In this document: positions 11,648 to 63,422 of the stretch, in pieces
Position numbering within the stretch: the first letter of the stretch is position 1
Layout of the letters: every line of letters starts with the position of its first letter
Origin: Cyanidioschyzon merolae
Lineage: Eukaryota
Assembly (NCBI GenBank): GCA_000091205.1
Contig: AP006494.2
Direction: 5' to 3' (one strand)
Length of the DNA: 64,000 bases
Translations under genes and position numbers: made by a program
The notes under the pieces: model-generated
What the model was told of the DNA's origin: nothing
What the model saw: the letters and a program-made list of their open reading frames with translations, nothing else
Databases searched by the model: none

Positions 11648-13432
11648 GTGTACCAGAGCCGTGATAACTCTGGACTGCCAACCGTGCGCCGCAGCCTAGA
11701 TACGCGCTCCCAGAGAAGTAGGTGCCAAATCATGACTTGGGCTTTTCTCGGTTTCCTGGCACCCCTGCCGGCTTGGAGGTGCGATCATCATAAGACGATA
11801 GGTGCTGGCAGCTGCAATTCGTTGCATACGGGGGGCGCTCACTGTTCCAGGCTGCGCCGTGCGGCCCTTGTGCGGGTACCAGGTCTCATAAATCCTGCTC
11901 CGTCTCTGTGGTATGCTAAGCGGCGCAGCTGCCGGCGCAGTGAGAGGTCAGCGCCTCTGAATCTGACATCCTCATTCGCCTCCCTGGGTGTTTTCCCGGA
12001 ACTCGTTACAGCACTCGATGCGGTGGGCATCCAGACCCCAACTGCCATTCAGACCCGCGCCGTTCCTGCGATTCTCGGAGGAGCCAGCGTTATCATCGGA
12101 TCTGCGACAGGTTCAGGCAAGACCCTTGCCTACTTGCTCCCAATAGTACAAAGACTCAAAAGCGAAGAACAGCAGGTCGTCTCGGAAATGCAGACAGAGG
12201 AAGCGGCTGAAATGATGCGGCGTGGGCGGCATCCCCTGCGCAGACCAGGTGCACCGCGAGCGTTAGTCATTACGCCGACTCGAGAGCTTGCAGAGCAAGT
12301 GCTTGGAGTCTGCAAGCACCTATCGCACTATATCAAAATTCGTGCGGCTTCGGGTCTGGGCGTCCGTCGCATAGTTCGCGCGCAGTTGGAAGAGCAGCCT
12401 GTCGACATCCTGATCACGACAAGTGGACGTCTACTGCAGCTCCTGGACGAGCAACTCATTCGACTGCGATCTGTGCAAACTGTCGTTCTCGACGAAGTAG
12501 ATACACTGCTGCTGGATGAGGGAGGATTCCACGACGATATTCGACAAATCATGGGAAAAGCCCGCAATACGCAGCAGTTCATCGCCGTCGGAGCGACGCA
12601 CCCCACTGCAGCGCAGAAGCTCTACAGAGAGTTCTGTCCAGGTGCAAAACCCATCACTGTGGATCTCCACCAGACACCATCGAACCTGCGTCAGAGGTTT
12701 ATTCGTGTGAGCGGTGCGAACGGCAAGACCGATGAAATCCTCGCGCTTCTCAAGGAGGAGACTCATAAGAAAACCCGTTTGCTCTCCGGAGGACGAGTTA
12801 TGGTGTTCTGCAATACGGTCGACAGTTGTAGATTTCTGGACTATTTTCTGCAGGAGCACGGCTTCACTACAGCGAATTACCATGGTGACATCCCGAAAGA
12901 CAGGCGCGAAGAAGAATTTCAAGCTTTTGTACGAGGCGAACGGCAGATTCTCGTTTGCACTGACATTGCGGCACGGGGACTCGACTACGACCACAAGATA
13001 GATCAAGTGATACTCTTCGATTTTCCGCGCACTGCCATAGACTACTTGCATCGGGCCGGGCGCACCGCTCGGGGTCCCTCGGGAACCGGCACCGTTACCT
13101 CTCTCGTAACAAAAAAAGATTTGCCACTAGCGAGCTTCATTGAGGACGCAACTCGCATCGTAGGTGTAGACCTCGTGCAGTACTGCGAGACCAAAATGCG
13201 TGAAGCCGTGAAACGAGACGAAAAACCCACGAACGTGAACGCGTCCAACGCGCCCCGCTCCGGTACTCGCCCTGGATCACGTACACGTCCTGGACCTGGT
13301 GCACGTCCTGGACCTGGTGCACGTCCTGGGCCTGGTGCACGTCCTGGACCTGGTGCACGTTCTGGACCTGGTGCACGTCCTGGACCTGGTGCACGTCCTG
13401 GGCCTGGTGCACGTTCTGGGCCGCCAAAGTGA
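11648..13432 (+). CDS. DEAD-box-family RNA helicase (DEVD variant) with an N-terminal extension (possible transit peptide) and a C-terminal (RPGPGA)n low-complexity tail
   Basis: Helicase motifs visible: I 'GSATGSGKT', Ia 'PTRELAEQ', Ib 'TSGRLL', II 'DEVD', III 'VGAT', V 'ARGLD', VI 'HRAGRTAR'. The helicase core starts near aa 110. The first ~110 aa are R/S-rich, so the true start codon is uncertain. Confidence 0.8.
13262..13420 (+). repeat. 18-bp tandem minisatellite (~9 units of 'cgtcctggacctggtgca') inside the helicase CDS, encoding an (RPGPGA)n tail
   Basis: It is directly visible. The units are imperfect (cct/tct, gga/ggg variants). On the opposite strand it generates a spurious 'DVHQVQ'-repeat ORF (13137-13934). 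Confidence 0.9.
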
Positions 13433-13474
13433 ACTCGTGGACCGCTAACTGCCGTTTACCTCTACTAGACTCGA

Positions 13475-15490
13475 CCCCCAGGTGCGTGTCATCAAATGCA
13501 TTTTCGCCATTTACAGCAGATGTGTTCGAAGTGCGTTCATTTTGTAGAAAGAAAAGGCCATGAGATAGGTATGGACGTTGTAGTCGGGAATCCTGGAGGA
13601 CCGTCATCGCCCGGTTCGACATAAATGCGAAAATATCCCCTTTTCGCCAACCATCAAGCGAAGAAGCGCAAATGAAGAAGCTGAAGAGGGGCAATATGCC
13701 AGAAAAGATGTTTGTCCCACGGGACGATGACGAGCCTGTCGTTGCACAGAGGCTGCGAGCTCGGAGAATCCCTGCATTGATGAGCACCACCAGCGTCAAT
13801 ACAGGCAACAAGCTCATGAACGGAAACCTCAACGCCCCCATCAAAATCAGAAGATACGCGGTGCTGAAGACGAGACCAGCGGAGCTGACTCGCGCAAACT
13901 TTGCAGGGCAGCATCCCAGGCTCGAAGTGTGCAAGGGGAGGCTGAAACCGACGGTAGGGGGCCGGTCGCAAAAAGGCTGGGAGGCGGCGTCTGCGGATAG
14001 ATATTAATTTGCACTCCATGGTCGTGCAGCTCTTTTGCATCACTGACTTGTGGTGTGTCTTAGGGTACAGTGATTCCCGCTTCTTCATGGGCACCACCGG
14101 CGTCAACAGTCGATGTTTGCTGCGCGAGCGTCAGGCACGATGCGTGGTTAGAATAAAATGGAACTCTGAACAGAGCGCTCTGTTCCGTCGTTGACCTTTT
14201 TTCCTAAACGTTTTTAGTTGCGCAGCCTCGGCATTCAAAGTGCAGCAATAGGAAATCGGGGATTCATACGTAGCTTTAAGATGCTCCGACGTCTCGGTGG
14301 AACGGCTTTTTCTCCTCTGTTAAACTGTCATTTCTTCGGTCGTTGGAATCAAGATGATCCACGACGCCTGTTAAGAAGGGTCCGCAAATTGCCCGATATC
14401 ATTATCGACTTCATTCCAAAAAGCTTCCGGTGCTCTCCTTTCCGCACGTATACTATGCTCAAATCCGGAAATCTTCTATTTATCTATGTTTCTGTTTCAG
14501 GGCAGGTCATATGCGTGGCAATTTGCGCCGCTAGATAGACGACGAAAGAGTCAAAGTCGCTTCTCGATGAGTATTTTGACAAGCTTATGCCGAAGGTTTT
14601 CTGAACGTCTCACGACAAATAAACGATCTCAGCCGGATGAGGACTCGTCCTCTTTATGTGGACATAGAACAAACTGCATTCCGTAACAACGTGATATCTT
14701 TCACGAGATATGTTCCTGGGGGCTCTCGTATTTTCTCTCTGCATCAGAAAGGGTCAAGGACTCGGATTTGCATCCTCGCGGCAACCGCTTTTCGTGGAAA
14801 TTCCGTCACCTGTTTGTACGGAGGGAGCGTAGACGAATCGAAATCTCTCGACTTGTTCTCCAGCTTATATCTGCCTTCCGTTGCGTGTTTCGTAATGGAG
14901 GAAATCGCGTTCCGAGACGCTTATTTCGAATGGAGCAATGCACTATTCCGTGCGTAGCGGACAGAGGACTCGTCGAGGGGATCACCTTCAAGAAGCCCGT
15001 TATCATTGGGTACGACATCGGGCGCGGAAACCGAGAAGGTCCTGGCAAGTAGCGCTTCATAGCTGCCATTGGCATACACCGAGCATTGAAGTGGGCCTTC
15101 TGGCATGAAAGGGCAACGCTCAAAACAGGAGAAGCGATGGATGTCCGGGAATGCCTGACCAGAGTCATATCCTGCCGTTGGAAAGGGCACGTCAAGGCAG
15201 CGCACAAAGATGATGGAAATATGAGGTGTAGGGTAAATCACATCTGCCGTCTGCGCATGAAATACGTCGACAACAGCTGGAAGCAGCTAACTCGGGACTG
15301 CAACGCAGCCATCAACATCATTCGGCTGTCGATAACCCAGCTGGAGGGAAACGAGAGACCGACGTATTGAACGCCGGATATAACAAAGAGGAAATGAAGC
15401 AGTCTCTGATAAAAGCTGAAAAGGCTGATGTTGGTGACAGTGGGTATGGACTCAAACTTGAGATTGCACGCACGAGTTAGGAAAGTGGAC
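13475..15490 (+). mobile_element. Most complete member (~2.0 kb) of a TnpB/Fanzor-like transposable element family. Order: left end, N-terminal OrfB/TnpB-like block, a decayed middle, a C-terminal Zn-finger/RuvC-III remnant, then the conserved 3' terminal module.
   Basis: The left end 'cccccaggtgcgtgtcatcaaatgc' recurs at 46684 and 49021, and in reverse complement at ~3757 and ~11290. ORF 13672-14007 carries 'IKIRRYAVLKTRPAELTRANFAGQHPRLEV', consistent with the TnpB N-terminal pattern (k-a-y-k-f-R-L-y-P-T-x-e-Q...f-G). Frame 2 at 14768-15370 reads '...VIIGYDIGRGNREGPGK*RFIAAIGIHRALKWAFWHERATLKTGEAMDVRECLTRVISCRWKGHVKAAHKDDGNMRCRVNHICRLRMKYVDNSWKQLTRDCNAAINIIRLS'. Region 15410-15490 matches the R4/R5 3' termini. 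Confidence 0.55.
14768..15370 (+). pseudogene. Decayed C-terminal half of a TnpB/Fanzor-like (OrfB_IS605-type) nuclease: a degraded Zn-finger followed by the RuvC-III motif 'RDCNAAINIIRL'. Interrupted by an in-frame stop at 15050-15052.
   Basis: I re-derived the codons at 15293-15328 as cgg gac tgc aac gca gcc atc aac atc att cgg ctg, which is R D C N A A I N I I R L. TnpB/Cas12/Fanzor proteins end with ...C-x2-C...(H/R)D-x-NAA-x-NI.... The upstream 'TRVISCRWKGH' and 'MRCRVNHIC' fit a degenerate CxxC...CxxC finger. ORFs 14768-15052 and 15086-15370 are in the same frame, separated by one TAG. Confidence 0.5.
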
Positions 15491-15695
15491 CCGTTCCATT
15501 TTATTCTGGCAAGGATGTAGACAGCTTCGCGCATTATACTTCCAGCGAGATACTGACAAGGCAATGCGGACTACAGGCGACCAGAGCCGCAACCACGCGC
15601 GTCGCGAATACCGCGGGGACTCACTGGCATATAACAAATAGGACAAGGACGCATTTACACATGAGAGAGTGTGCTTCGTTCTGTGCTTGCCGCTT

Positions 15696-17699: not shown

Positions 17700-18083
17700 T
17701 TCATGCCTATTTATCCATCATTTTTCTGGTGATCGGCTAGCGCGCGCCCCCTATGGCATAGCGATCAGAGCAGGTCGCCGCCACTGCCGCCTCCAGCGTG
17801 ATGCAGGCAGCCGCATCACAGCTGCGACTGGAGCATCACCTAAGAATATCAGCAGTGCTGCATTCCCAACTGCGTACACGGAAACGAAGCGACGGTCACC
17901 AATAGTATGCTTGTACACACGATTCGAAGAGGACCACTGCTACAGTCCAATCCAGAGATTGTTCGAGAAGCTGAGAAACAGGCTTTTAAGAAACGTCATA
18001 GGATATTGTGCACCGCTGACGCCCTTAGTGCCCCATTGTAGGTGAGAGCGCCGGTCATGAGCCAGAAAGGATCGTATGCTCTC

Positions 18084-19750
18084 TAATATTGACTATTTCG
18101 ACACCAGTATCACTCATGAATCGCTCAGCAAAATCATACGCGTTTTCTACAGATATGGCGCATCAACCGTCCGGGAGTGCTGAACAGCACCACGCCTGTC
18201 CCGCCTCTGGATGAGAATCATTCAATCACGCCACGCATGACAGCCGATTCTTCCCAAGTCTGATTCGCCAGCGCTCGGGGACAACGCTCACACGGTATGC
18301 TGAACGATTTTCACATAGTTTCGCGCGACCCAAGCCTGCTGGACGCTTCGGCAGCTCGGCACATCTCCGGATGCTGATAAAGGCGTTGATGTCTCAGAGC
18401 AGCAAAAAAGGATCGCACGCATCGCTCCCGGCAGAAGAATCAATCCGTCACAGTCCGATCGCCTCGCACTGCGGCGTCTGCCATAGTCTGGTAAACTCGG
18501 CTTGCCCCGTTTCGGGCACCCAGCTCACTTCTATGCTCGTCTTTACTCCCTGTTCCAGCGTGCACCAGTGCTCGTGGTGCGCGTGCGTCATCCTAAACGC
18601 GTCGATGGATACCGCACAGAACCGAGACATGCACTCACACTGCGCTCTCGTCCACAGGGCACGAGTGCGGCCTCTGCACACAACAGCACATCCAGCGCTA
18701 TAGGAAGCACCGAAGTGACGCGCATGATCGGTCGCTTCCATTTCGAGCGCACTGCACGAGCAGCTGAATACACGCTGCGTGCCGCCGTACAAAAGCGTCG
18801 TGGACGACGCGAGCGCGGTCCCAGGTACGCCCGCCACCGGTCTCCCGCATGTGGGACTCGGGCCTGCACTGGCTCTCCGAATGAAGCCTACAAAGCGTGA
18901 CCCCCGCCTTGATACGGTGCGGGGCGCATCGAGACGCGCGCTGGCGCCTTCGTGATGCTGGCTCGTAGGCCCTCTGGCACACGTATTGCCCCGCCGCACA
19001 TAGCACCGAGCACTGGAATCGCTGCGCAGCTTGATATGCGTTCTGTGCAGGTCTTTGGATACGTCCCGTCGATGTGGAAGCACCGCGACGGCCACGAGTG
19101 CCTTCGGTGTGAGACCCATGCGCATGCCAAAGGCTCTCTCTCCAACCACGATGAACGCTTCGCCGCGAGTCTCGCTGCTCGATTCAGGGCTCAGACTGGC
19201 AATATGCACGTAGACTGGTATTCCGTCGGTCTCCATGGTACCAGGAACCTGCTTTCCGTTTCCTCACTGTGAGCAGGCAACCCTGAACATGCTTCGTTCG
19301 TGCTCTTAGCAGCGTTGTCCACAGAGACCAGCGGTCGCTCTCTGCGCAGACTATGCAGTACACTGCAAGATTGTCGACCGCGACGCAGAGGAACTCTCGG
19401 CGACGCATATGGTGGCTGTCCCAGGTGGTCGCTAGAGGAGGCTGGGGCGCTCGCATTCGGAGAGCAAGGGCGCTTTTCTCTCGCGGAACCTGTTCATGCT
19501 GAGGCTGTAGCACAAGGTGCGAGGAGGGCACGTACCACGTTTCGACCAACCCGTGGGTACGATGTCCGTCGGTATCAGGCTGCCAGCAATACGATGAGCT
19601 TTGAGGATCGGGATCGACTTGTGCGCTCTCAGTGACGTTTCCTCGGAACTCGCGACCACCTCGATCGCTTTCGGCACCAGAAGCTCCTCATTGACCTTCT
19701 TCGATATGCGAAGCATTCTCTCCATGTGTCCCGACTTTTCTCAACCAGGA
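18084..19750. repeat. Dispersed repeat family R2, copy b
   Basis: See R2 copy a (offset 11632 bp). It lies in a ~3.8-kb gene-free stretch upstream of the HAT-repeat gene. Confidence 0.85.
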
Positions 19751-21618
19751 ACCTGAGGGTCCAACGTCCACGGAGCGCTCCATTTTGACCTTGTCCCGCG
19801 CACGGTTTCGGTTTTCGAGGTTGGTCTGATATTTCTGGGCACGTGCGCTGTAGGTTTTTTTCGATCGCCGACGAGGCATGGCGACGCATGAACATCGACC
19901 GGACAACATGTATGAACAAATCGCGGGTTTGACAGTCAGGCCGTGTTGCATCTTCAGCCACACGCGCCAGTTGCGATGTCGCATGAGAGTTTGACTGAAA
20001 AGCTCTAGTGGAATGTGGATTTCCAGCAGCAGTGCTTCTGGAGCTCCCCAAAAGACACTTGATTTGCGAATTTTGTTCACGCGGGGGAGGCCAGGTAAGC
20101 CTTCTTCGAATGCGAAGCATTTCGAGCCCCGATGGCGCCCTGAATTTTATACTTTGGAAGATTCTCGCAGTTGAAGTTTTATCGTGGGGAGACGCAGAGC
20201 ACGATTTCAGATTTATGTTTCTCCCCCGAACGCTTCCCCTTCACGCTGCTCGTTCTCCTCTGTTCAAGCGGATCTTCCTCTTCTTGCAAGTCGGTATCGT
20301 TTCCCATATTTGACCCTGGGGATACCATGCATAAGGTCGCTATGATCTTCAGCCGTTCCTGTCTTCGGGATTCAGACGCACCTGATGGACGGTGGCACAG
20401 TGGCGCGTCTCTTCTATACATGTATCTGCTATTCCTTACGTACCTTTCCGTCACTGTCTCGGTTGCAGGCGCACCAGCGCAGCGATGCACGCCTCCCTAC
20501 TCCATCCCGCGCACAAACAGTGGAGAACCATGGCAGATCAGCGCTGGCGAAGTTAGGGCATGTCTTAGCGAAGAGCGGTGCCATGAATGTCAACCGCTGG
20601 TCCATTGCTCCATGAGCGAAAACGCGGCGTATAACAGCAGCGAACAGAAATTTTTCTGGATTGAGCGCGGGACCACAGACTGATATGAAGCGGTACTCAA
20701 CTCGAAGCTCAGTCGCGTGCTCTTTTGACGCCTTAGAGCAACGAAAAGCGACGGTGTCTAAAACGAGTATATGCTGCTGGACCATTCTGTCTGTTTGCAT
20801 ACCTGTAGGCAACGAGACGCCTGGATCGCAACCAGGGCTGATGTTTTCTTGATGATCACTAGCGTCTTCTTCACGAACACCGGATTTCCCGCCTTCGAGT
20901 TCCCAAATTCGGGTCTTCCATTTCTCCCGAATGAAGTTTCATCGAGTGAGACGATCGCAGTTCGTTCCTGTGGTCCAAGTTCGCGTTTCTTTACGAAACA
21001 CACAGTGCGTTATTGAACACGCGAAGATCTCCCACAGATACATGCTGTTTTCTTTGTCCAGCTGTTTCTTTCCATCAACATTCTTATCAATGGTACCGAA
21101 AATGTCCAACCTGTGGTTGCAGTGGCAGCATTTCCTAGCATACCTATGGAGTGGCGCAAATTTTCTAAGCGACATCCACGTAGGTAGAGCCTGCGAATAT
21201 CTGGTTTGGCTGCACGACGTTAATAACAAATACTTGAAGACGAGCTGTTCATCAATATTTTAACCGTAGAATGACGATCGTATAGTAGCAAGGCCGTATT
21301 TTGAAAGCTAGACGTGACAAGCCTCCCTCTTTCCATGGCCTTTTTCCAGTGCGCAGGCTACAAACTTCGTCGCGCCGCTTGCACCCGGGCGCAACTAGCG
21401 AGCGGCAGGAACGCGCTCTACACATATTCCCAATCTCGTGGAGCACTGGTGTTCGTTCGTCTGAAAAACCTGCAGTTTCTGTGTACGCACGTGCGCCATT
21501 GTGCCCACTCGCTCGATAGACATAAGTGGTCTTTTCCTGTCTTCATCCTCAGCCAGAAATTAGGTTCTTGTTTCACTACCGTCGAAAGCTTCTTTTAAGC
21601 AAAACAGGTAACGCGCGG

Positions 21619-23638: not shown

Positions 23639-23749
23639 CGACCGGAGGAATCAAATGAGGCGTAACGTAACGCTGCACCAAGAACGGTGCGCGTAGACAC
23701 ACAGTGTTTAGTAGAACGATGAACATGCTACGACCACGCAGGGTAAATT

Positions 23750-24050
23750 GATGTTCAGACGCAGACGCCTCCCCATCTTTTACGACCGGCCACTGGTATC
23801 AGCTTCTGCTTCTCCTTGCGCAATTCGAGCCTAAGAGGTTTCCCCATAAAGTTCGCTCTTTCCAGCTCCGCGGGTCTCATATTCAGTACTGTACATCGTC
23901 TGACAATGACGGCGGCGTTGAGGTTTCGGTTCAGGAACTTTATGTGTTTCTTACATCTATTAGAGCTCTTCATTGCAAGGAGTTCTCGAACTCGTGCCCT
24001 CTGTGCCAGCAAAGTCTCGTCATCATCCTGGCCGGGAAACACCTTTTTTC
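23750..24050 (-). mobile_element. Degraded fragment of an R3-type unit carrying the TnpB-N-terminal-like block, in inverted orientation
   Basis: Minus-strand ORF 23755-24042 reads '...NAAVIVRRCTVLNMRPAELERANFMGKPLRLELRKEKQKLIPVAGRK'. This is homologous to '...NAPIKIRRYAVLKTRPAELTRANFAGQHPRLEVCKGRLKPTVGGR' but more diverged than the other copies. Confidence 0.45.
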
Positions 24051-24577
24051 TCGCCTATCTCCCATCTTCGTCTCCTTCTTCGTCGTAACATACGCTTCTT
24101 CGCTCTATGGTCGGCGAGAGGAGGATACTATTCGTTTGTTTTCCGGCAGCCGGCGATGATGATCCTCTAGGATCCCCGGCTTTCATGTCCAAACCTTTCC
24201 TTTAGATTTTTTATTCTTTAAAAAGAGACATACATCGAACACGTCAGCCATGAACCCCGAAAAGCACCTGACGATATTCACTTGGGAGTGGGACATAGTT
24301 ATCAAAAATATATAGTTTCAGGCGATTCTGTCCGGTTTCTCTGAAAATCGAAGCGCTCTCGAGATTGCGCACGCGGGGCCAATGCTTCGCCGCGCCTGCA
24401 GTGCATGCTCCTGCTGAACGGTCGCTGCAGGGGTCACGAATGCGCCAGCGCAGCCTAATTGGGACACCAAGCCCTAGAGCTCGTTACGTGCATATACAGT
24501 TCTGTCCATAAATGAACAGGAGCTCGCTCGCCGAGCAATAGTCACGCCAAGCGTGACGCGGCGGATACTGTTCTCGA

Positions 24578-30315: not shown

Positions 30316-32428
30316 GACTCGAAAAAATCAGAAACAAAATCTCAGTAGACGAGGATTCACCATATCACGCTGCAGAAGTGCTGCTCCACAGAAGTAATTC
30401 AATCGCAGCGCGTTGAGAAGATTGATCAGTCCCGCCGAGGCGCTAGCGACGCCATCGAAAAACACACTTTTCAGACACTGTTGACGAATTCTGTTATGTC
30501 TGTTTGTACCAGAAAAGCTCTGAAATAACAGCAACGAAGAGCGGTCGCTACAAAATACCGCGGAACTCCACAAGACGCACTGCACCTCCAGGTTGAGCTT
30601 ACAACGCCTCGTTTGCGATGGGCTCTCGAACGCCTGCCACAGGCACAGCGTTGTTCGACTCCGTACTACGCTTGGCTCGTGAGAAGAGTTTGGCAAAATG
30701 GCCGGACACGGAAATCCGTAAAGCGGTTTCCTGGGCGCTGCTTGCAGCGAATGAGGCAGGGCGGACTGGCAGTGAGCACGGGTACCCTGAGTTGGACGCA
30801 CTGTTGCGCGCCTGGTTAGAGGAGAACCCTTCTTGGCAATCAGAGTTCTTGGAAAGGTTGCATACAGTGCTTTGTGACCCGAACGTTTCCCACGCTTGCG
30901 CCCAACCGCCACGTTCGAGGCAAACGAGTAACTCGTTCGAGGAATATGCATCAAACCTTTGTGTGACGTTGCTCGCAACCAGACTGAGCAAAAACGTTCT
31001 CAACAATCAGGTTTCACTTGTGCTAGACCCGTCTCACATCAAGTGATTCGGATGTGCGCTTTCCGATGTTTTGCGGTGCTCAGAAGCTTTTCTTAGTCGA
31101 ACAATTTAGTGAGTTTTCCACGATGCGAGAGAAGAATTTTGCAGTCACGTTCGTAGGGCTTTACGAAACTGGGACAGCCAGGGGCGATAGGTGAGCGATC
31201 CAGTGCAAGAGCAATGTCAGAGGGGGCGACTTTTTCGAAGCACGCGTTTTGCGCAGAAATCTTGGAAATGAGGTCGAATAGTCGAGCGCGCTCTCTGTGG
31301 AAGCATTACGAGCTCAAGACGGGCCAGGCCTCCACCCGTGCTTCACATGGACGTCATCGCCTGGCCAGGAGCTTTCTTTCGTATGTTCAGTGGCAGGCAT
31401 ATCGAAAGACAGTGCAGCAGCAGCAACTGGTCTCGTTTCCGCTCCCGCTACTTTCGAGACCTCGCTCATGGTCGTTAAGCTAAGCTCCAAATAAAACCAA
31501 AGATGTCATAAATGGTAGCGCACCTGCTTTAAATTATTCTGTATTTCACAGGTCATGAAAAACGCCTTGCCTTTATCACGGAGAGTCGGTTCTCTGCTCG
31601 CAATGCGATGGCCTATCCCGGTTGTGTACCCTGGGCAGCACGATAGAACCGCTGATTATGCGGGTCCATTTCTCGGGGGGCAAAGTCGGATGTTCCAGGT
31701 TACTGTTCATGCGTTCCGCATCATGAGAAGATAGATACAGGGTTAATGAGTCTTGTCCATATAGTCTTTCAACTCAATTTGGTTTCATCGCTGTTGCGGT
31801 GTATAGCAGGGGATCGAAAATCTCTATTCGACGCACTCTCTAGATCGTAGACGAATTGCCTTAAGGATATATGCTTCACTGCAGTGTGCATGGATGGCTG
31901 CGTACCTCCTTCAGGGCAGTCACATCGCAGTGCTCAGATGCCTGAGGAATACTGAAAGGAAGAAGTGTATGGGCTCCGCGCCAAAAATCGATATTCTTAA
32001 AGACTGATTGGGTTCAATGGTAGAAAATGACCCGTTGATCACCTTTTACGAAAAGCGAAGGCGACTATAGTAACCACTATGACCGTCCCTGTTCTCAAAA
32101 GCTTGTTCGTGTTATCCTGAATCACTGGGATACAGTCGCAAAATAACTTAGTTCACACACAACTATCTTTTATCGAAGTTGCGACGAAAGAGTTCCTGGA
32201 ACGTTGCGATCGTTATGAAGAACAGGGACACCGACCAGTTTTCCGAGTCGATGAGACTTCCTTCCGAAAACACGGTCGAAGCATATGTAGGTCTTCGCAG
32301 AGAACGGGCTCGTTGTATGTATGATCGAACTCGAAGAGAACGTAGATATTATCTGTTCAAGCTACTGTGGATTCATATGGCGGCGTCAACTTCAACGCTG
32401 CAGAGCGGGCCGTACTACCTAGTGGCGC

Positions 32429-34415: not shown

Positions 34416-36017
34416 TCACTCCCATTCTATTGTTCCGGGCGGCTTACTCGTGACGTCATAAACAATGCGATTCACGCCACTGACCTCGTTCACAATTCGC
34501 AGTGAAATTCGCCGCAGCACCTCGAAAGGAAGAGGATACCAGTCGGCAGTCATGTAATCCGAGGTAGCAACCGCTCTCAGCGCAATGACCTCTTCGTATG
34601 TCCGAAAATCTCCCATGACTCCTACAGCTTTGCTGGAAAGGAGCACAGCGAATGCTTGTCCAATCTGTTCATACAGCCCTGCACGGCGCAATTCATGCAG
34701 AAAAATAGCATCTGCTTCGCGCAGTTTGTTCAAACGTTCGGAAGTAATCTCACCGAGAACACGTATGGCCAATCCCGGTCCAGGGAAGGGGTGACGATAG
34801 ACAACCTCCGCCGGTAAGCCGAGCACTAAGCCAAGCTTACGAACCTCATCCTTAAACAGATATCGAAGCGGTTCAATGAGTTTGAGCCGCATTCGTTGTG
34901 GCAGACCCCCGACGTTGTGATGCGTTTTGATCGTGGCACTCGGGCCCTTGTGCGATATGGATTCGATCACATCCGGATACAACGTGCCTTGGAGCAAAAA
35001 ATCGGCTGAGATTTTTCGCGCCTGCTCCTCGAAGACCTTGATGAACTGATTGCCGATGGTCTTGCGTTTCTCTTCCGGATCGGTAACCCCTGCTAGCGCA
35101 TCCAAAAAGTGCGTAGATGCATTAATACAATCAACCTGAACATGCATTTGGTCTCTCAGCATCGCCATCACGTCAGTCGCTTCATTTTTGCGCAAAAGCC
35201 CGTTGTCCACAAAGATTCCGCGAAATCGATCTCCAATCGCCCTGGACACGAGCAGCGCTGCGACCGTGGAGTCGACGCCACCGCTCAGCGCACCGACAAC
35301 GAGCGCATGCTCTCCTGTTTGCTCGCGGATTGTCCGAATCGCTTCTTCGAGAAACGCTTCCATGTACCAGTCACCTCTGCAGCCGCATACTGCCCGGCAA
35401 AAATTAGCCAGCACTTCCGTACCGTGCTCAGAATGACTCACCTCCGGATGAAACTGTAGTCCATATATAGGTGCAAGCACCGATGCATGCGCGTTCGGCT
35501 GCCCGTACACGGCAGCGTAGTTGCAGTTTTCCGTGCGGGCAATGGGGTAAAAGCCCTCGGGCAGCGAAATCACCCGGTCACCATGACTCATCCAGACCGA
35601 GCAGGAAGTCTTGAGGCCGTGAAATAGCGCGCCACCGTCAGCAGGATCTTCGACTACCTGGAGAGTGGCATGTCCGTATTCTCTCTTATCGCCGCACTCC
35701 ACCTTCCCTCCGAGCTGGTACGCAATCTCCTGCATACCGTAGCAAATTCCCAGTATAGGAATACCAAGGGAGAATATGCGCGCGTCGAGGTGCGGTGAAT
35801 CAGACTCGTAAACAGACGCAGGGCCACCAGACAGAATCAAACCCTTCGGTTTCAGTTCCATCAGGCGCTCTGGTCCAACATCGTAAGGGTGAAGCTCCGA
35901 GTAAAACCCGATGTCCCGAAGGCGCCTCACAATCAGATGCGCGTACTGGCTCCCAAAGTCGAGGACCACGAGTAGATCGTGCCCCGCGTGGATCGAGTTC
36001 TCCAACGGCTCTGTCAT
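34416..36017 (-). CDS. guaA: GMP synthase [glutamine-hydrolysing], bacterial-type single-chain GuaA (~533 aa)
   Basis: Class-I GATase: 'GICYGMQ' (catalytic Cys), '[11 protein letters not shown]' (His/Glu). ATP-pyrophosphatase P-loop '[12 protein letters not shown]'. C-terminal dimerisation domain '...[57 protein letters not shown]'. The ORF is colinear with GuaA from end to end. Confidence 0.9.
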
Positions 36018-36087: not shown

Positions 36088-37450
36088 CGGCGTCTGCGTG
36101 GTGCACCCACATCGGATTAAGGTGGAACGATGTATTTCGCATCCTGGTCCAGCCTTTCGATTCCCTCCGAACTTTCTTTCTCGGTGTACTGCCTCGGTAT
36201 CCAAATTGCACCATCAAGCGATTACGGATTCTTATGTAACTTTTGGATTCGCTGTCACCCTTTTTCGGAACTGTCTCTTCGATACGTTGCCGCCGGAGTT
36301 CATTACGTCACCGGTATCAAGTTGCTCCATGACACACACGAGGAGAAGTTCGTACACTTCTCCACAGCATTACCTACTTCTCAGGCACAGGAATCCATTC
36401 TTCCGTTTTCCTTGCAAACGGCAAGCTCAAATCACGCTTTCCTCAAGTTTTCGGTGTTTCTGTCTCGGAATATCTCGCAGGTGCAGCAATCGGTGCCGCA
36501 AGACTGACGGGAGCAAGAAATCGATGTCGACCCTTGACGACTTGTTCAATAGCTGAGGCCGGAAGTGCACTGAACTACTCACGCCGAAGAGTCGATTCCG
36601 TTCGAAAGGAAAATCTCCCTCTCTTTGTGGACATCCTCGAAGCGGCACTCGGCAGCAGCATGACGTGGCTCAATGGAACTGCACCCCAGGGCTCTTGTGT
36701 ATTCTGGTTCCATGCCAAAGGGTCTTGGACTCGGACGATGGTCATTGCAGCGATCGCTTCTTCAAGAACGCGCATCACGGATTCGCAGGAAGAGAGCGAA
36801 GACGAATCGTCCTTGCTCGAATTGATCTCCTGTCTGACTATTCCTCCCGGTTCTTTTTCACCATAGACAACATCGCTTTCCACGAATCCCGTATCAAACG
36901 GGACGGCGCGGACCTGCGCATGCCGCGGACAGAGAACTCGCCGATGGCACCTCCTTGAACAGGCTCGTAAGTCTTGGGTACTGCAGTCGGCGCGGAAACG
37001 GCGCTCGATATCGAGGTGACCATGCTGCTCCCGTGATGGGCATTGACTGAGCGCTGAATCAAGAGCTCATATGCGACAGGGCGGCGCTCGGAAGCTGACG
37101 TGTGGAGGAGAGATCGGAGCACCTGCGCACCGTCAAGCGTGATCGCTGCAAATGGCGCTCGTGGGCTCAGTGCAAAGAATGTGACAACGGCAAGTGAGGC
37201 ACTGATCGCGGTCTCCGCATGAACATGAAAAGCGTTCACTTAAGCTGGAAGTAGCGAAATCGAGGCAATAGCGCTGCAATCAATTTTCCTCCGCTGTTTA
37301 GAAGGAGCTGGAGGAAATAGAGAGACCTGCGTATTTCACGCCCAAACCAAGAGAGGCGAAAAGGAAGCATTAGCAGAGAGAGCTCGCCAGGCAGGTGTTG
37401 ATGGCATTGGAAAGAGACTCAAACTTTAGAGTGTGCGCCCGCAGAGGAGG
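36088..37450 (+). repeat. Dispersed repeat family R4, copy a (~1.35 kb). It ends in the 3' terminal module shared with R5 and the TnpB-like element. It occupies the divergent intergenic region between GMP synthase and BCKDH-E1-beta.
   Basis: Near-identical to 56606-57968. Both start 'ctgcgtggtgc[a/t]cccacatcggattaaggtggaacgatgtatttcgcatcc' and both end 'caggtgttgatggcattggaaagagactcaaactttagag[t/g]gtgcgcc'. Small indels near 36930 break the 220-aa ORF that is intact in copy b. Confidence 0.85.
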
Positions 37451-38046
37451 ATCGCTCCCAATTTATTCCAAAATCGCTGGTGGACTCAGAGGATTCTGCG
37501 TAGCGATGTTTCCTTCGCAAATGCAGACAGCGGTCCATCCGATGGCTGTTATCGGAAATCTTTCGTCCTCCTCGAGCCGACCACCATCGGGACATATGCA
37601 AGGTGTCCTTTCTAGATTATGTCTTGAGGCGTTCTGGATCAGGCCCCTGTTCTATCAGTGAACACTGTTCGCTGTTTGGAAGAACACGGAAGTGTCCAAG
37701 TCGGCAATGGGGCCGCCTCCTGCTGCAAGATAGGATCTATGCATCCAAAAGACTTTAGTAAACTGTGATGATCCTCTAACTTAAAGAAAGCTTCTAGGCT
37801 AGCGTTCGTGCTTGCACTTGGGTCTCTTTGTGCTGTCAGGGAGAGCGCAGACGTCCGAAGGACTCGAGTCTCCTGCATCGTCCACTCTCATGAAATTCGC
37901 GGCAATCGCGACATCGCGCGAGTTCCGATCTCCCTGCAAGCATCCTATACCCACCAGGCTACCTGATTGAGGGTTTGCTATTGCTCTTTCTGCACGGGGA
38001 ACGGGTTGAAATATACACCAAAAACGCTGCTTGACTACTGCCAGTA

Positions 38047-46271: not shown

Positions 46272-46683
46272 TCGAGTTCAGCTCCGTCGAACGCTGTCCT
46301 CCGGGGCAGCGCTGACTCGTGCTTCACGTGCTTAAAGCTACAACGCAGACCACAGTTTTACAGTTCAAACTTGTTTACTGCACAGGCCTTTTATCCAGGC
46401 TGCGCGAGTCACTCTAAGGATCTCAGCTTCTGTTGCGATGCAGCTGTCCTTAACTGTCAACCTTTGTTCCCGTTCAAACGGTCTCGGCGTGGGTGCGTAG
46501 CAGGATAACAGCTTGCTTTCACACCGGCCACGGCAATAGTCTCTAGAGATACGTCAAGAACTTCCGCTGCAGTTCAAAACAGATGCCCGCTGATCCCAGT
46601 CACCACTGAAGCAGCAAATCTTTGCTCTGCATAGAAACGCGCTCGCGGAGACAAGGGCTTTTAGTTACGCCATTTGCACTCTA

Positions 46684-47230
46684 CCCCCAGGTGCGTGTCA
46701 TCAAATGCTTTTTCGCTGTTTAGAGCAGACGCGTTCAAACTGCATTCTTTTGAAGAAATAAAAACCCAAGTGAACGGAATTGATATAGAAGTCGGGGATC
46801 CTGGAGTGCCTTCTTTGTCAGTTTCGACAAGAAAATGGCAAAAATTCCTCTTCCCGCCAGCCATCGAGGAAATAAGAGCAAGTGACGAAGGAAAAAAGAA
46901 GAAACAAAGGTGAGCCAGACGAGAAAAAGTGTTCGCCCGACGGGACGATGACGAGACTAATGGCACAGAGGGCGCGAGTTCCAGCAATCCTTGCGATGAT
47001 GAGTTCCACCAGCCGCGATAAATGCAAGCAGTTCGTGGATTGATACTTCAACACTGTTATTAGTATCAAACGTTGCGCGGTTCTGAAGAAGAGACCCGCG
47101 GAGCTGAACCGATCGAACTCTGTGAGGCATCCTCTAAAGCTCGAAGTGTGCAAGGAGAAACTGAAAACGATAGCATAGGATCAGTCACAAAAGTATGGGA
47201 GGCGTCCGCGCGTGGATATTTATTTATCCT
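46684..47230 (+). mobile_element. R3-type unit (5' portion of the TnpB/Fanzor-like family), more diverged
   Basis: It begins 'cccccaggtgcgtgtcatcaaatgctttttcgctgtttagagcagacgcgttcaaactgcattc'. Shared internal blocks: 'ggggatcctggag', 'cgacgggacgatgacgagac', 'gaagagacccgcggagctgaac', 'agctcgaagtgtgcaaggagaaactgaaaacga'. It ends 'gggaggcgtccgcgcgtggatat'. Confidence 0.65.
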
Positions 47231-47549
47231 AGGTGAGGTTGGAACATTTTTCTGTGTCACTGACATGCGTAGTATGCCGAAGCTGTAAACGTAAAAGTAT
47301 TTCGGAAAAATCTCAAGGCAGGAACAGTGCAAGCAGTTTGGTGTTACATTTTAATATTGCGCCTCTATCGTGGCGCGCTCAATTTCCAGAATACATTTAC
47401 GCAACTCAACCGCTGTTTCCAGGTGGAAACCTATTTGGCGTGGAGCACCCGCAGTAACCAACTTGAACTTGCGCGGTCTAGTTTCCGGGGGTGCTTTGCG
47501 TTCCCTCAGTTTGCTTCGCTGCCTTCGAAGCTCGTGCACTGGGTCTTAA

Positions 47550-48203: not shown

Positions 48204-49020
48204 ATACTTTTCTTGGCTTCGCGAGCGTACTACGTACTGTTCATAGCGGCTTCTTGCGGGATCATGGGCCCGGAAAAGGACCGTCAAAGATTCATTTATA
48301 TGCTCCAGCTCCTTTGATGGTGCAAGATCGGTGCTTTGAACCAGAGTCACCCCGGATGTGCGATTGCTGCCGCAACCCTGAACTAGGCCAATGCCCTTCC
48401 TCAAACTTTAATGTGTGCCATTAACCTTGGGCAAGTGTTTTCTCTATGGCGTAAGGGATAGATCTGTTCCAGAGTGTGTCGCTGTGACATACTCCGTTCA
48501 CTTCGATCCTTTACTGCTGTGCTCAGATGGTCGCGAGGCATCATATCTTGCGCTGAATTCACTGCATGTCTAGTGCGATGGCTCGTGCCCGATATAAGTG
48601 GTCGTCCTTTTTTTGGATGTGCAATCACAGGATTAGTTATGTGTGCGGTTGCAGATCTGTTGCTTTCCGCCAGTATAAAAAATCTGCGCGCTTTCCATTT
48701 TCATTCTAAGAGCTGAATACCGATGTTGTCAAGCCTCTCGCAGATTCGACGTAAAGGTTGACAGATGTTTTCGCGTAGCGCTAGCTATATTCGTCTGCTT
48801 CGCATTTGCTGTCCAGGAACTCAATCTGGTACAGTAAAAGAGCGCAGGTACAGTCCCCGTCAAGACGTATGCAACTATCAATTGTATGCCAGATGGTAGG
48901 TGGGTTCTCCGCGTGCGTTTCTGTCTCGAATCGTCTAAGCTATATGACTCATAGGTGGATGCACGCATTCGGTACGAGCGCATGCACCTTGTTTTAGTCT
49001 TTCACCTCAATTGCGTTCCA

Positions 49021-50218
49021 TCCCCAGCCGTGTGTCATCAAATGCTTTTTAGCGATTTGTACCAGATGCATTCAAAGTGCGTTCATCTAAAAAGAATATA
49101 AAACCATGGAAGAGGTATGCACACGGAAATCAGGAATCCTAGAGATTTGTCATCACCGGCTGCCGGCAAACAATGAAAAAATCCTCTCCTCGATGTTACT
49201 CGAGCAAAGACAAGCGAATGAAGAAGAAGATGGTGATGAGGGGATATAGGCGAGAAATCGTGCCTGGACGACGGGATGATGACAAGACTTCGGTTGAACG
49301 GAGGGCACGACTTCGAGGACTCCTTGCAGTGGTGAGTACAATCAGCGGCACAGCAGGCATGGACTTCGTGAAACGAGATTCCAACGCTGCCATCAGTATC
49401 CGACGATATGCTGTTCTGAAGACGAGACCCGAGCAGTTGACGTGATCCGACTTTGTTAGGAGCCTCTTACGCTCGAAGTGTGCAGGGAGAAGCTGAAGCC
49501 CGGAGCACAGTCCTGTCCAAAAAGGCTGGGAAGCGTCCGTGGGTGGATAGTAACGTTCCCGAATCGCTCTCCAGCTTGGATCTTCCTTCCGATACGTGTT
49601 TCCTTGGAGACGATATAATGTACCAGAAATCCTCCATCGAACGGATAGGCGCCCTCTTCATAGTGCAGCGAACAGCGCCTTCGACGAGGTATCGCTCAGA
49701 AGACGCCCGTGATCTTTTTTGGACCGCACCGGGCGCGGAAACGGTGACGGGCACTGCGGAGGGCGTCCTTTGCTCTCCGAGGGCGCGTGCCGAGCGCTGG
49801 TGCGAGCGTTCACGTGACGCATGGCAGGCCTCGGAGGACAATTTGAGATGGAGCTATATGAACACGAGGCCACAGCGAATTGTCATCGATGCGCAAGGCG
49901 CAGCGTGGATAGGCACGAAGAAGATGAAAGAGCCAAGCGAAGCGTGGATCGCGAATAGCGCCGGTGCACGCGATGCGTTGACAACACCCGGAAGGAGCGG
50001 GATTGGGACGTGAGCGCGGCCACATGCATCCTTCGACTGCTGAAAGTGAGGCTGGCACCATATGAGGGACCGGCGCTTCAAATGCTGGAGGTAAGATATA
50101 GGAGAATGATGCAGTCGCGGAAAAATCCCACAAAGGCTGGTGTTGATGCCAGTTGGAAGAGGCCAAAATTTTAGAGCGTGCATCTGAGTTAGAGGGCCAG
50201 TTGTATGTCATTCTGACG
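49021..50218 (+). mobile_element. Composite, internally deleted TnpB/Fanzor-like element: an R3-type 5' unit (49021-~49545) fused directly to an R5 3' unit (~49545-50218) that ends in the shared 3' module
   Basis: The left end is 'ccccagccgtgtgtcatcaaatgctttttagcgatttgtaccagatgcattcaaagtgcgttcatc'. ORF 49173-49445 carries '...AISIRRYAVLKTRPEQLT'. The junction 'aaaaaggctgggaagcgtccgtgggtggatagtaacgttcccgaatcgctctccagcttggatcttcc' joins the R3 tail to the R5 head. The 3' end is 'ggtgttgatgccagttggaagaggccaaaattttagagcgtgcatctgagttagagggccagttgtatgtcattctgacg'. Confidence 0.7.
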
Positions 50219-50383
50219 TGGGTCTAGAGGTCGAGGTCATGAAAAATATGTCTCGCCTGACAAAGACGAGGTCACAGAGCCAGGCTGGCCTCATGCAGAG
50301 CCGCTCCCGAATTCGCCATACTCCCCTTCGATACCAAGTGCTCGTGCGAGGCGGCTACGAGACGCGCCCCATACGTGAGGCGC

Positions 50384-51988: not shown

Positions 51989-52689
51989 TCATAGGGCACC
52001 CCTGCAGGATATCTGCGAAACCCATGTAAATTAAAATGTAGTATGGAATTGCGCGCTCTGCTCCCGTCTTTCAATTTATTCCAAACACTCTTTACATACG
52101 CAACCTCAACACCACAAGTGCAGCAATAAGGGACCAAGATTCATATGCGCTTTAGGATTCTCGGTTGTCATTTCGTTGCGGATCCTTCGACTCCTTCCCG
52201 CCGGAACTCTTGATGTTAGCGGAATCGTGATGGTTCGTGAAGCCTTCAATCAAGGCTTCGTAAATTAATCGACGTCATGACCCAAATCATAACTAAACGC
52301 CTCCTCGCTTGGCCTTTCCTTACGTATAGCATGCTCACATCGCGCACACTCCAGGCTTTCTATGCCTCTGTTTCAAGGTCAATGGTGCGCGCAGCAATTC
52401 GCACCGCTGGGTTGACGACGGAAAATACCTGACGATGACTGCTGCAGACTTGTTTACGAGCTCGAGCCAAAAGTTCACTGATCGTCTCATGTCATATAAT
52501 CGATTACTTCCGCAACACGACTCCTCCTCTTTTCGTTTCCATCAACGAAACGGCATCCGGCTGTGTCGAGATATCTCCAATGGGTATGCCCCCGGAAACT
52601 CTCGTATCCTCTGTTTGCATCGGGAAGAGCCGTGGAATCCAACTTCGGTCACTGCAGCGGTCGCTGCCAGTGGAGACAGCGCCACGCTT

Positions 52690-62885: not shown

Positions 62886-63422
62886 GATGATCGCGTTGCG
62901 ATAGGCTGAGGTGCTCGTTCAAGAGCTACGGCCCGAGACCCCGTGCCCCGCGAACGAATGCTCTCTCGTAGAGTTCTCATGAGAACCGCGGCTGAACTTT
63001 GAGCAATAGTAGCCTAGGCTGTCACCAAAGAAACAATAAACATCGGTAGTTTTCGAATCGTACCCACATACAGCACCTACGTGGCCCAATATGAGAAGTC
63101 GGCGCTGCTGTAGACGCTATCACCGAATACCTGGCTATGAGCCAGTCTAGCAAATCTCACTGTCTGCAACGCAGGCGGCCTGCGCTTTCGTCTTCCCTGA
63201 TTGCAGACGGCTCTCGCGCATTCAGGGTTGGTTTGCTTGAAATTGTAGATCTAAGCCCTAGAATATGTTCTTTTACCGCATGCGCGTATGAAGTGGAGTG
63301 GTCCATCTAGACCGTTCTGGATGCGTGCCGTTCGCCTTCGAACAGGGATCAGTAGGCACGCTCGCTCAGATGCGAAAACGTTTACGCTAGTTCGAAAAGA
63401 AGAAGCAGTCTACACCACGTCA

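Follow-up and report, generated by a model that had tools for sequence, protein, structure and literature searches.

The module of about 80 bases that closes several repeats in the 64,000-nucleotide stretch of Cyanidioschyzon merolae DNA analysed here (the window) consists of the closing part of a disrupted gene for a Fanzor, a TnpB-like nuclease, and of the right end of an old 1.4-kb mariner-type transposon, copies of which are scattered along this red-algal chromosome. The GMP synthase ORF of the window is identical to BAM80769.1 of C. merolae 10D. We put at roughly 80% the probability that its carriers, which we call E-type, are a family of ~1.4-kb non-autonomous DNA transposons of C. merolae and related hot-spring red algae that stems from one internal-deletion derivative of a Fanzor-carrying composite transposon of the IS630/Tc1-mariner type. 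As read from the alignments, the right part of the previously described 2-kb element and the repeats R4 and R5 hold the module by common descent and not by capture. The repeats are thereby re-read as one family rather than three, and the module as a coding tail rather than a non-coding sequence.

One family of elements ending in the module

The module occurs in seven copies in the window, where none is expected by chance, and these were matched by nhmmer at E 1e-9 to 5e-32 (64-kb window); a 22-position pattern of it matched the six copies listed before and no shuffle. The first-pass annotation had the module at the right place in each case, and a seventh copy, which it lacked, lies at 789-894 on the minus strand. 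Its claim that the module is terminal also stands, since every copy is the 3' end of its own repeat and nhmmer profile searches of the window found none at a non-terminal position. The E-type copies are as follows, with the module as placed by nhmmer:

773-2165, minus strand: Em1, a fourth diverged lineage absent from the first-pass annotation (nhmmer, end-to-end alignment); module 789-894
14127-15525, plus strand: E2kb, the 1.4 kb on the right of the former 2-kb element (nhmmer with a 5-lineage profile, hmm 3-1397; end-to-end alignment); module 15403-15516, also from the 16-lineage alignment and consensus ORF
36095-37493, plus strand: R4c1 (nhmmer), ancestral TAG stop 37427-37429; module 37372-37478
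47272-47355, minus strand: isolated piece of an E-type left end (nhmmer, hmm 24-108, E 8.6e-12)
49538-50228, plus strand: R5c1, 5'-truncated, profile positions 701-1390 (nhmmer), TAG 50172-50174; module 50115-50223
52029-53396, plus strand: R5c2 (nhmmer profile); module 53279-53387
56614-58003, plus strand: R4c2 (nhmmer), TAG 57944-57946; module 57889-57999
63409-64000, minus strand: R5c3, cut by the window end (nhmmer, BLASTN); module 63414-63521

The module had been described as shared by three otherwise unrelated repeat families, R4 having an unrelated body. We found instead that E2kb, R4, R5 and Em1 are homologous over their full ~1.38 kb, the four window lineages showing a pairwise identity of 56.7-59.3% from end to end in global alignment, and that the bodies, that of R4 included, are also joined by BLASTN (15256-15474 with 37224-37441, 14437-15039 with 52313-52914, and 1321-1844 with 36944-36421). 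A metagenome search with the module pattern gave 17 matches, 6 of them in unrelated AT-rich bacterial sequence, and a scan of viral contigs for the module gave no match. Together with 12 lineages from hot-spring metagenomes, the four of the window make up 16 lineages, which are colinear, measure 1.37-1.40 kb each and have the same architecture. Every carrier is homologous to the others along its whole length and has the same deletion junction, which speaks against the suggestion that the terminus was borrowed as SINEs borrow LINE tails. In the 16-lineage alignment the identity falls from ~0.6 to ~0.32 beyond ...GGGTGTAG(A), and the expected heterogeneity of the downstream DNA from locus to locus was thus observed; the exact termini are uncertain by about 12 nt. 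What had been taken for three "unrelated" repeats is one old element in diverged copies, and hence ordinary transposon debris. R4c1 and R4c2 are 99.6% identical over 36093-37439 (BLASTN), and the last ~45-55 nt of R4c2 show only ~60% identity to R4c1; in both R4 and R5, near-identical copies drop to ~60% identity right after the stop codon.

The 2-kb element proved to be two elements, E2kb and, to its left, the following unit:

13469-14026, plus strand: internal-deletion derivative of the Fanzor1 element CMe-1A (blastn and tblastn against the CMe-1A consensus, PMC3627910; Fanzor1 HMM)

This unit and six similar ones match CMe-1A by blastn (~70%) and tblastn (E 1e-10 to 1e-18). Between E-type and CMe-1A, nhmmer found no DNA similarity beyond the RuvC-III codons (E 0.3), and both the Fanzor1 HMM on E-type and hhalign of stitched copies against CMe-1p gave the RuvC-III motif only. 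A likeness of the E-type tail to the CMe-1 C-terminus (KTG...SWRRFV) was dropped because its BLASTP E was 1.6. CMe-1A derivatives adjoin E-type elements in the window, and R5c1 is next to one such unit.

Two gene remnants between inverted repeats

A majority consensus of the window lineages and the 12 metagenome lineages restores two gene remnants, in different frames, between inverted terminal repeats, which identifies the element as a non-autonomous deletion derivative of a mariner-Fanzor transposon. As reconstructed, the element would run from the left inverted repeat through a transposase remnant to the deletion junction, and from there through the C-terminal ~165 codons of a Fanzor, the stop and a poorly conserved spacer of ~25-30 nt to the right inverted repeat. 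E2kb contains these parts, both of its gene remnants being decayed:

14150-14164, plus strand: left inverted-repeat core AGAATAAAATGGAAC, a perfect repeat (15/15) with 15493-15507
about 14218-14990, plus strand: decayed DDE_3 transposase remnant (alignment with the consensus)
15293-15319, plus strand: codons for the RuvC-III motif RDCNAAINI in the decayed Fanzor ORF (ORF 15086-15370, Fanzor1 HMM, hhalign)
15368-15370, plus strand: premature TGA, TTA->TGA against the family consensus (alignment, consensus translation)
about 15421-15459, plus strand: tail codons, frame-shifted (16-lineage alignment)
15460-15462, plus strand: ancestral stop position, TAG mutated to GAG (16-lineage alignment)
15463-15492, plus strand: spacer (16-lineage alignment)
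15493-15507, plus strand: right inverted-repeat core (15-nt perfect pair)

The frame-1 translation of the consensus (257 aa) matches the Pfam transposase family PF13358 (DDE_3) at E 6.3e-9 (36.3 bits, cut-off 28.6) over profile positions 5-102 of 146, the last third being missing, and it also gives a weak HTH_32 match; the E2kb ORF 14637-14957 is colinear with this DDE_3 segment. The remnant would thus comprise a helix-turn-helix and the first two thirds of DDE_3, ending ...YSP before the third catalytic residue. The inverted-repeat sequence of E-type is given as CACCCWTGTCAGAWTAAAATGGAAC, with GTTCCATTTTATTCTGACATGGGTG as the right core, and the consensus left end CACCCTTGTCAGATTAAAATGGAAC matches the reverse complement of the right end, CACCCATGTCAGAATAAAATGGAAC; matches to the core motif are enriched in the window (14 vs 4.2 expected). 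A TA follows GGGTG in 8 of 15 lineages, the left flanks have no consistent TA, and the repeat may extend by ~12 nt (…ACGCAGA / TCTGCGT…). The repeat probably does extend beyond GGGTG, so that this TA is at most a candidate target duplication. Helitron-like or IS605-like ends for R4 (5'-TC...) were rejected because of the inverted repeats and the DDE_3 remnant. E-type copies may have been mobilised in trans, by the transposase of an autonomous partner acting on these repeats; among the loci examined no autonomous full-length copy with E-type inverted repeats was found.

The second remnant is Fanzor-derived. The C-terminal 168 aa of the consensus match PF07282 (Cas12f1-like TNB) at E 2.1e-8 (34.6 bits, cut-off 26.3), a domain that is preceded by an E..T(S/T) RuvC-II segment, and the Fanzor part has the 'IGYG' motif, E..TT, two CxxC pairs, the RuvC-III motif NRDLNAAINI (RDCNAAINI in E2kb, RDLNAAINL in the L015 copy) and a basic tail. 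A related metagenome ORF (P0093) also matches PF07282 (E 4e-4). When 1.84 billion proteins were scanned by HMMER with the window ORFs, 29 ORFs with the same tail were obtained, several of them ending ...KRPK(L/F/Q/R), and hhalign aligned 28 E-type ORFs with an intact Fanzor family of 512-798 aa bearing PF07282 (99.5%, E 5e-23, 96 columns). Searched against a small database, a Cyanidiales Fanzor1 HMM matched the RuvC-III segment with E 0.005-0.012 in F5, in E2kb and in one stitched copy. The family assignment rests on the consensus and on profile methods rather than on single window ORFs, for Pfam matched no family in ten such ORFs, and neither Pfam and PDB profile searches with four stitched pseudo-proteins nor a word-indexed protein search with the stitched alignment gave a match; we ascribe the Pfam and PDB failures to the decay of the copies. 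In an intact relative a DDE_3 gene lies 31 nt upstream of the Fanzor gene, with no clear inverted repeats around the pair in its locus (L042). In E-type a DDE_3 remnant takes the place of RuvC-I and the N-terminal WED/REC parts upstream of 'IGYG' and, as every window copy has stops and frameshifts, these are gene fragments and not Fanzor genes. The present copies are likely to have no function.

The module is inside this remnant. It encodes the basic C-terminal tail of the nuclease, ...KKPAKAGVDDNGKRPKL*, and consists of the codons for ...QSQKKPAKAGVDDNGKRPKL, a TAG stop within TTTAGAG and the first bases of the spacer; the tail may once have been a nuclear localisation signal. By alignment and consensus translation the ancestral ORF reads through the module to this TAG, and the 16-lineage consensus has an uninterrupted frame of 79 codons, KRSVDRNFRLCMKCVDNSRKQRNRDLNAAINILRLLTTELEGKERPAYLKPEIRERKRKQSQKKPAKAGVDDNGKRPKL*, with stops in the other two frames. 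In R5 and in F5 alike the distance between RD and TAG is exactly 177 nt, all in a single frame, and the R5c2 ORF 53123-53338 runs from the second CxxC through RDWDVSAA to ...KAGVDASWKRPKF, with its stop at 53339-53341. Codon-position bias is weak (divergence 0.43 at third positions vs 0.38-0.39) and was not seen over 14 tail codons among five lineages; a period-3 analysis of four lineages gave no signal, and the divergence of R5 from F5 (pS 0.64, pN 0.52) is uninformative for dN/dS.

The first-pass annotation was correct in making the module part of a TnpB/Fanzor-like element's right end and, taken literally, in letting it begin ~40 bp after a TnpB-like stop codon (TGA, 15368-15370). That stop, however, is by comparison with the consensus a nonsense mutation peculiar to E2kb and not the end of the ancestral ORF, so the module cannot be taken as non-coding sequence downstream of the ORF. 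Next to no chance is left to the model of a module that lies past the ORF as non-coding omega-RNA scaffold and right end and was captured by unrelated R4 and R5 in the manner of SINE tails. The module does close every copy, a stop codon does lie 40 bp upstream of it in E2kb, and the flanks past the element do differ, but the full-length homology of the bodies already contradicts the model, as do the uniform architecture and length of all lineages, the position of the module within the ancestral ORF and the private origin of the E2kb stop. The case cautions that one nonsense mutation in a decayed transposon can fake both the "stop codon" of an ORF and, behind it, a "conserved downstream module".

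The module, which is 63-65% identical among the four window lineages and 55-61% among all 16, is not the best-conserved block of the element in either alignment. This bears on the idea, to our mind highly improbable, that it is a subterminal transposase-binding site, a second site of the IR-DR type retained because mobilisation in trans needs it. Its location 25-30 nt inside the right inverted repeat would fit such a site, and non-autonomous derivatives do keep cis-acting ends; against it, no inverted or direct counterpart occurs near the left end, where only the repeat core recurs, the module is conserved no better than the rest of the element, and it reads as an ORF.

RNA structure of the 3' region

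The reconstructed consensus 3' region folds better than shuffles (z -2.16), the module core GGTGTTGATG pairing with ATCAACATC in the I-N-I codons and AGCAGTCG pairing with CGACTGCT. The 3' region of the intact relative also does so (z -2.22), by a helix that joins the RuvC-III codons to the tail, and the 3' consensus of CMe-1A folds at z -2.5. Given the consensus fold (z = -2.2) and the complementarity of the module core to RuvC-III codons, an omega-RNA scaffold overlapping the coding tail is plausible. By analogy with TnpB and Fanzor systems, the scaffold would have been transcribed, in the ancestor, from the final ~240 nt, which begin at the RuvC-III codons and close with the right end, and the flank past the right repeat would have supplied the guide. 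The last ~110 nt of the element are taken up by module, spacer and right repeat; an extent from the 3' end of the ORF to the right end, with variable sequence beyond, suits a scaffold but is true of any transposon end too.

Covariation, which the first-pass annotation had proposed as a check, was not seen in the decayed copies, nor was a shared structure, and this is the outcome that the annotation had named as refuting its RNA reading; the consensus fold nevertheless favours a structure. RNAalifold found 0 pairs in 16 lineages, the consensus-derived structure was 67.0% paired in the copies vs 67.8% in shuffles with a covariation score of 0.165 vs 0.175, and the module in individual copies had fold z-scores of -1.8 to +1.5. 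An alternative 9-bp helix of the NAA codons had a covariation score reached by 5 of 500 shuffles, within the tool's stated false-positive range. Since the copies have decayed neutrally, the covariation test on them has little power. Rfam gave no match at E<=0.5 in 13400-15600.

These data have to be weighed against a further possibility, in our view an unlikely one, namely that the module was conserved mainly as RNA, as the 3' strand of a scaffold helix pairing with the RuvC-III codons, the tail being incidental and the derivative still supplying guide RNA to a Fanzor made elsewhere. It draws support from the three z-scores, the intact relative having the same kind of closing helix, from the complementarity of GGTGTTGATG to CATCAACATC and of AGCAGTCG to CGACTGCT, which yields an interrupted helix of ~20 bp in the consensus, from the two tail blocks in these helices being among the better conserved, and from the co-folding of published Fanzor RNAs with the ORF 3' end (PMC10530073). 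However, covariation is absent, single copies fold no better than shuffles, z-scores of about -2 are modest, the helices were noticed post hoc, and at the protein level the tail is conserved in many ORFs.

The 16-28-nt spacer after the stop as an internal guide is unsupported: the spacers have their own family relationships, and no second match to any of them was found in the window or in the fetched loci. Quite improbable is the proposal that the 1.4-kb derivative is a eukaryotic 'guide-only' parasite, which would have kept both repeats to borrow a transposase and the Fanzor 3' scaffold to borrow a nuclease in trans, a locus-specific guide in each copy driving its own retention or homing. If it were true, the switches to ~60% identity after the stop in R4 and R5 would mark tracts of homology-directed repair. 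A trans-acting guide RNA, if it existed, would be the eukaryotic counterpart of nuclease-less bacterial elements that bear an omega-RNA, and would provide a natural experiment on Fanzor-driven homing within a tiny, tractable algal genome; as matters stand, the significance is little.

Comparison with known systems

The guide RNA of Fanzor extends over the right inverted repeat and has a conserved structure that reaches into the coding region (PMC10530073). Like TnpB omega-RNA and Fanzor fRNA scaffolds (PMC8612924, PMC10432273, PMC10530073), the module coincides in part with the nuclease ORF at its 3' end, runs to the right end and is followed by locus-specific sequence; unlike them, it has neither covariation nor a match to a curated RNA family, and its copies encode no nuclease.

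Fanzor1 genes within Mariner/Tc1 transposons are documented, for example in PUl-1 and PUl-2 of Pythium ultimum (Bao & Jurka 2013, PMC3627910). E-type resembles such elements in its terminal inverted repeats of about 24-33 bp, in the order of an IS630/Tc1-like DDE transposase gene and a Fanzor gene on the same strand, in the closeness of the Fanzor ORF end to the right repeat, and in the transposase motif GSVD...F..FL...P......(I/L)(M/L)DN...H. It differs from them in that it is present only as a 1.4-kb deletion derivative whose copies are all pseudogenes, the transposase being without its last third and the Fanzor without everything upstream of 'IGYG'.

CMe-1A (TE-N2_CMe) is the Fanzor1 family already known from C. 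merolae, the sole one listed for the species, and was reported to have no inverted repeats (PMC3627910). It shares with E-type the genome, RuvC-III motifs of the Fanzor1 type and a short tail 3' of the ORF, whereas the inverted repeats and the DDE_3 remnant belong to E-type. E-type is thus a second, mariner-associated Fanzor-derived repeat family in a genome already known for CMe-1A.

MITE-like internal-deletion derivatives of cut-and-paste DNA transposons arise by abortive gap repair. E-type is like them in that both ends are kept, the interior was lost at one junction common to all copies, and the copies were amplified and then decayed. Unlike typical MITEs, it is longer (1.4 kb) and keeps 530 nt of the 3' end of a passenger nuclease gene.

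The module and the family that carries it

The first-pass annotation described a ~80-nt module at the 3' end of three otherwise unrelated repeat families, and we found every module sequence that it quoted in place. A 35-nt pattern, 22 of whose positions are fixed, matched the six listed copies and none of 100 shuffles, and a profile of these copies recovered them in a window search (E 2e-25 to 5e-32) together with an unlisted seventh copy at 789-894(-) (E 1e-9). The module is genuine and not a product of chance. Each occurrence in the window is 3'-terminal within its repeat; the profile searches of the window turned up no internal copy. A metagenome scan for the module pattern picked up, in other samples, the loci already present in the window and also one new lineage (L015/L009). 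Six further metagenome matches (L005, L006, L007, L011, L012, L021), unrelated AT-rich sequences that are mutually conserved, fit the degenerate pattern by chance.

The repeat bodies, however, are not unrelated. Self-comparison of the window linked them at 65-70% identity, through these matches:

15256-15474 (copy in the reported 2-kb element) with 37224-37441 (R4)
14437-15039 (same copy) with 52313-52914 (R5)
1321-1844 with 36944-36421

Moreover, global alignment of 14140-15520, 36105-37482, 52052-53392 and 783-2160(-) showed that the four sequences run colinearly for ~1.38 kb and are 56.7-59.3% identical in pairwise comparison, the module region reaching 63-65% versus 67-70% in other 60-nt blocks. 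The three supposed families are thus a single one, here termed E-type.

E-type sequences in the window (family DNA profile)
14127-15525, +, copy in the reported 2-kb element (E2kb)
36095-37493, +, R4c1
56614-58003, +, R4c2
52029-53396, +, R5c2
49538-50228, +, R5c1, 5'-truncated
63409-64000, -, R5c3
773-2165, -, Em1
47272-47355, -, left-end fragment

E-type elements have inverted ends; E2kb carries a perfect 15-nt inverted pair, AGAATAAAATGGAAC / GTTCCATTTTATTCT, at 14150-14164 and 15493-15507. Given these ends and the profile limits, the 2-kb element originally proposed is not one unit; it consists of an unrelated unit (13469-14026) followed by a 1.4-kb E-type element.

Window ORFs 15086-15367, 53123-53338 and 49959-50174 were searched exhaustively with HMMER against 1.84 billion proteins, which yielded 29 proteins at E<=0.001, comprising one intact protein of 512 aa (P0091) and 28 short ORFs with the pattern ...CMKCVDN..K.RNRDLNAAINILRLLTTELEG.ERPAYLKPEIRERKRKQSQKKP.KAGVD...KRPK(L/F/Q/R), several of which stop exactly there. 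The contigs of ten short ORFs contained eleven more E-type elements, full or partial, each 1.37-1.40 kb long and matching the profile colinearly, which raised the independent lineages to 16.

Probable mariner-Fanzor ancestry and neighbouring elements

When the 28 short ORFs were compared with the family of intact proteins that includes P0091 (512-798 aa, Pfam PF07282), hhalign gave a probability of 99.5% (E 5e-23, 96 columns), the match covering the E..TT segment, both CxxC pairs, and RuvC-III with the next helix. The majority consensus of full-length copies (1,401 nt) encodes in one frame a 257-aa helix-turn-helix and DDE_3 fragment, which matches PF13358 above the curated cut-off (E 6.3e-9, profile positions 5-102 of 146) and stops at ...EYSPRGSP, immediately before the third catalytic residue; another frame encodes 168 aa of a Fanzor C-terminus (PF07282, E 2.1e-8, above cut-off). 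In an intact relative on a 174-kb metagenome contig (L042), a DDE_3 gene lies 31 nt upstream of a 698-aa Fanzor gene on the same strand, matching the published arrangement of Fanzor1 genes carried in Mariner/Tc1 transposons (PMC3627910). From the two remnants, this gene pair and the published arrangement we infer that the E-type family is a decayed, non-autonomous derivative of a composite mariner-Fanzor transposon; the module does close a Fanzor-derived element, as its reading as the right end of a TnpB-like element had implied. Since the junction is common to all lineages, one internal deletion in the composite transposon would have produced the E-type, with amplification afterwards.

On L042, the intact DDE_3 and 698-aa Fanzor genes (4382-7097 and 9398-11944) lie 2.3 kb from a primase/D5-helicase gene (AEP_C962R, D5_N), a neighbourhood suggesting that the intact relatives may sit in a giant-virus or comparable mobile setting.

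Bao and Jurka described one Fanzor1 family in C. merolae, CMe-1A (3,169 bp, ~150 copies, no inverted repeats), and a short relative, TE-N2_CMe (PMC3627910). CMe-1A differs from the E-type, the match being confined to RuvC-III codons. Seven ~560-bp units in the window are internal-deletion derivatives of CMe-1A (~70% DNA identity to the published consensus, tblastn E 1e-10 to 1e-18), each joining the 5' leader and initial codons to the final ~100 codons and the 3' end. E-type sequence follows three of them immediately downstream on the same strand, and a fourth adjoins the inverted left-end fragment, an adjacency that looks non-random. Three longer, decayed genes share 26-28% aa identity with the CMe-1 protein, two of them within a 1.68-kb segment duplicated at 99.8% (6451-8128 = 18083-19760).

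Other features of the window
13469-14026, 5844-6391, 46671-47225, 48999-49550, +, CMe-1A-derived units (consensus match)
23730-24289, 2351-2733, 9926-10276, -, CMe-1A-derived units (consensus match)
6681-8135(-), 18313-19752(-), 59235-60260(+), CMe-1-like Fanzor1 genes (HMM E 1e-31 to 1e-42)
34416-36017, -, GMP synthase ORF, identical to C. merolae 10D BAM80769.1

A 1.38-kb duplication (2383-3760 and 9926-11300, 99.3%) contains a CMe-1A C-terminal fragment; within the duplication, 3156-3705 / 10699-11245 shares ~70% similarity with another repeat family at 31800-32342(-). The GMP synthase gene also occurs in many JGI hot-spring metagenome contigs. An 18-bp tandem repeat of about 8 or more units (13244-13441) encodes (GPGARP)n at the C-terminal end of the DEAD-box helicase specified by ORF 11648-13432.

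Coding content of the module and mosaic 3' ends

In an alignment of the last 300 nt of 16 lineages, the consensus holds one open frame of 79 codons, KRSVDRNFRLCMKCVDNSRKQRNRDLNAAINILRLLTTELEGKERPAYLKPEIRERKRKQSQKKPAKAGVDDNGKRPKL, that runs through the module, supposedly non-coding, and closes at the TAG within a conserved TTTAGAG; the other frames are interrupted by stops. The RD-to-TAG distance is exactly 177 nt, in a single frame, in both R5 and the L015 copy, with zero stops within this stretch in R5, and four of the five lineages first examined keep the TAG. The TnpB-like stop reported 40 bp upstream of the module does exist, but it is not the true ORF end: after ...ERPTY, E2kb has TGA where the family has TTA, followed by a 1-nt deletion, and the stop is thus a copy-specific nonsense mutation. 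Judged from the consensus, the module codes for a basic protein tail, which may plausibly have been a nuclear localisation signal, and includes the stop codon. Around RuvC-III as well as in the tail, divergence is slightly higher at third codon positions (0.43 versus 0.38-0.39), which is a faint mark of past selection over neutral decay.

Beyond the stop, the same alignment shows a poorly conserved ~25-30-nt spacer (identity ~0.50) and then the right inverted repeat (core ~0.63), identity dropping to ~0.32 past ...CATGGGTGTAG(A). By BLAST, R4c1 and R4c2 share 99.6% identity between the left terminus (36093/56612) and 37439/57956; a single mismatch follows, and the match then continues to about 37446/57963, ~17 nt past the stop codon, whereas their last 45-55 nt are only ~60% alike. 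R5c2 parts from R5c1 and R5c3 at the same position. In each of the two subfamilies, near-identical copies (98-99.6%) diverge from one another within ~5-17 nt past the ancestral stop codon.

Diverged spacer and right-repeat segments
37440-37493 versus 57957-58003
53344-53396 versus 50180-50228

The spacers had no second match in the window or fetched loci. Such a mosaic points to a recombination or conversion boundary common to both subfamilies; our guess would be ectopic gene conversion or gap repair among dispersed copies.

RNA folding and a possible guide-RNA scaffold

Taken alone, the modules of six copies (z +1.5 to -1.8) folded no better than shuffles and into structures that differed by copy; Rfam gave no match in 13400-15600. 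RNAalifold returned -14.5 kcal/mol on eight sequences and no structure on 16 lineages. A proposed 9-bp helix pairing the N-A-A codons with the beginning of the module had covariation reached by 5 of 500 shuffles, within the tool's stated false-positive range. The consensus of the E-type 3' region has a folding energy of -70.9 kcal/mol (z -2.16), equalled by 3 of 200 shuffles. Its fold includes an interrupted helix of ~20 bp: CATCAACATC (I-N-I codons) is paired to GGTGTTGATG, the core of the module, and CGACTGCT (R-L-L codons) to AGCAGTCG (K-Q-S codons). The spacer and right repeat join in a terminal hairpin. The intact relative (z -2.22) has a similar closing helix, and the 266-nt CMe-1A 3' consensus gave z -2.5. 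The last 60 nt of the CMe-1A consensus (PMC3627910, Additional file 2) hold a GC-rich hairpin, GCCGCCA...TGGCGGC, after the stop, then a T-run.

Compensatory change, which a conserved module structure would predict, did not appear: in a low-power test on 16 decayed lineages, 67.0% of cells were paired under the consensus-derived structure versus 67.8% in shuffles. Such lack of compensation is the expectation of neutral decay from a master copy, whether the ancestor was structured or not. Since decay would erase compensation in either case, we rate an ancestral omega-RNA scaffold overlapping the ORF end as plausible, unproven and somewhat short of an even chance. Published Fanzor guide RNAs overlap the right inverted repeat and show structural conservation that extends into the coding region (PMC10530073), and the E-type module lies where TnpB/Fanzor systems carry their guide-RNA scaffold.
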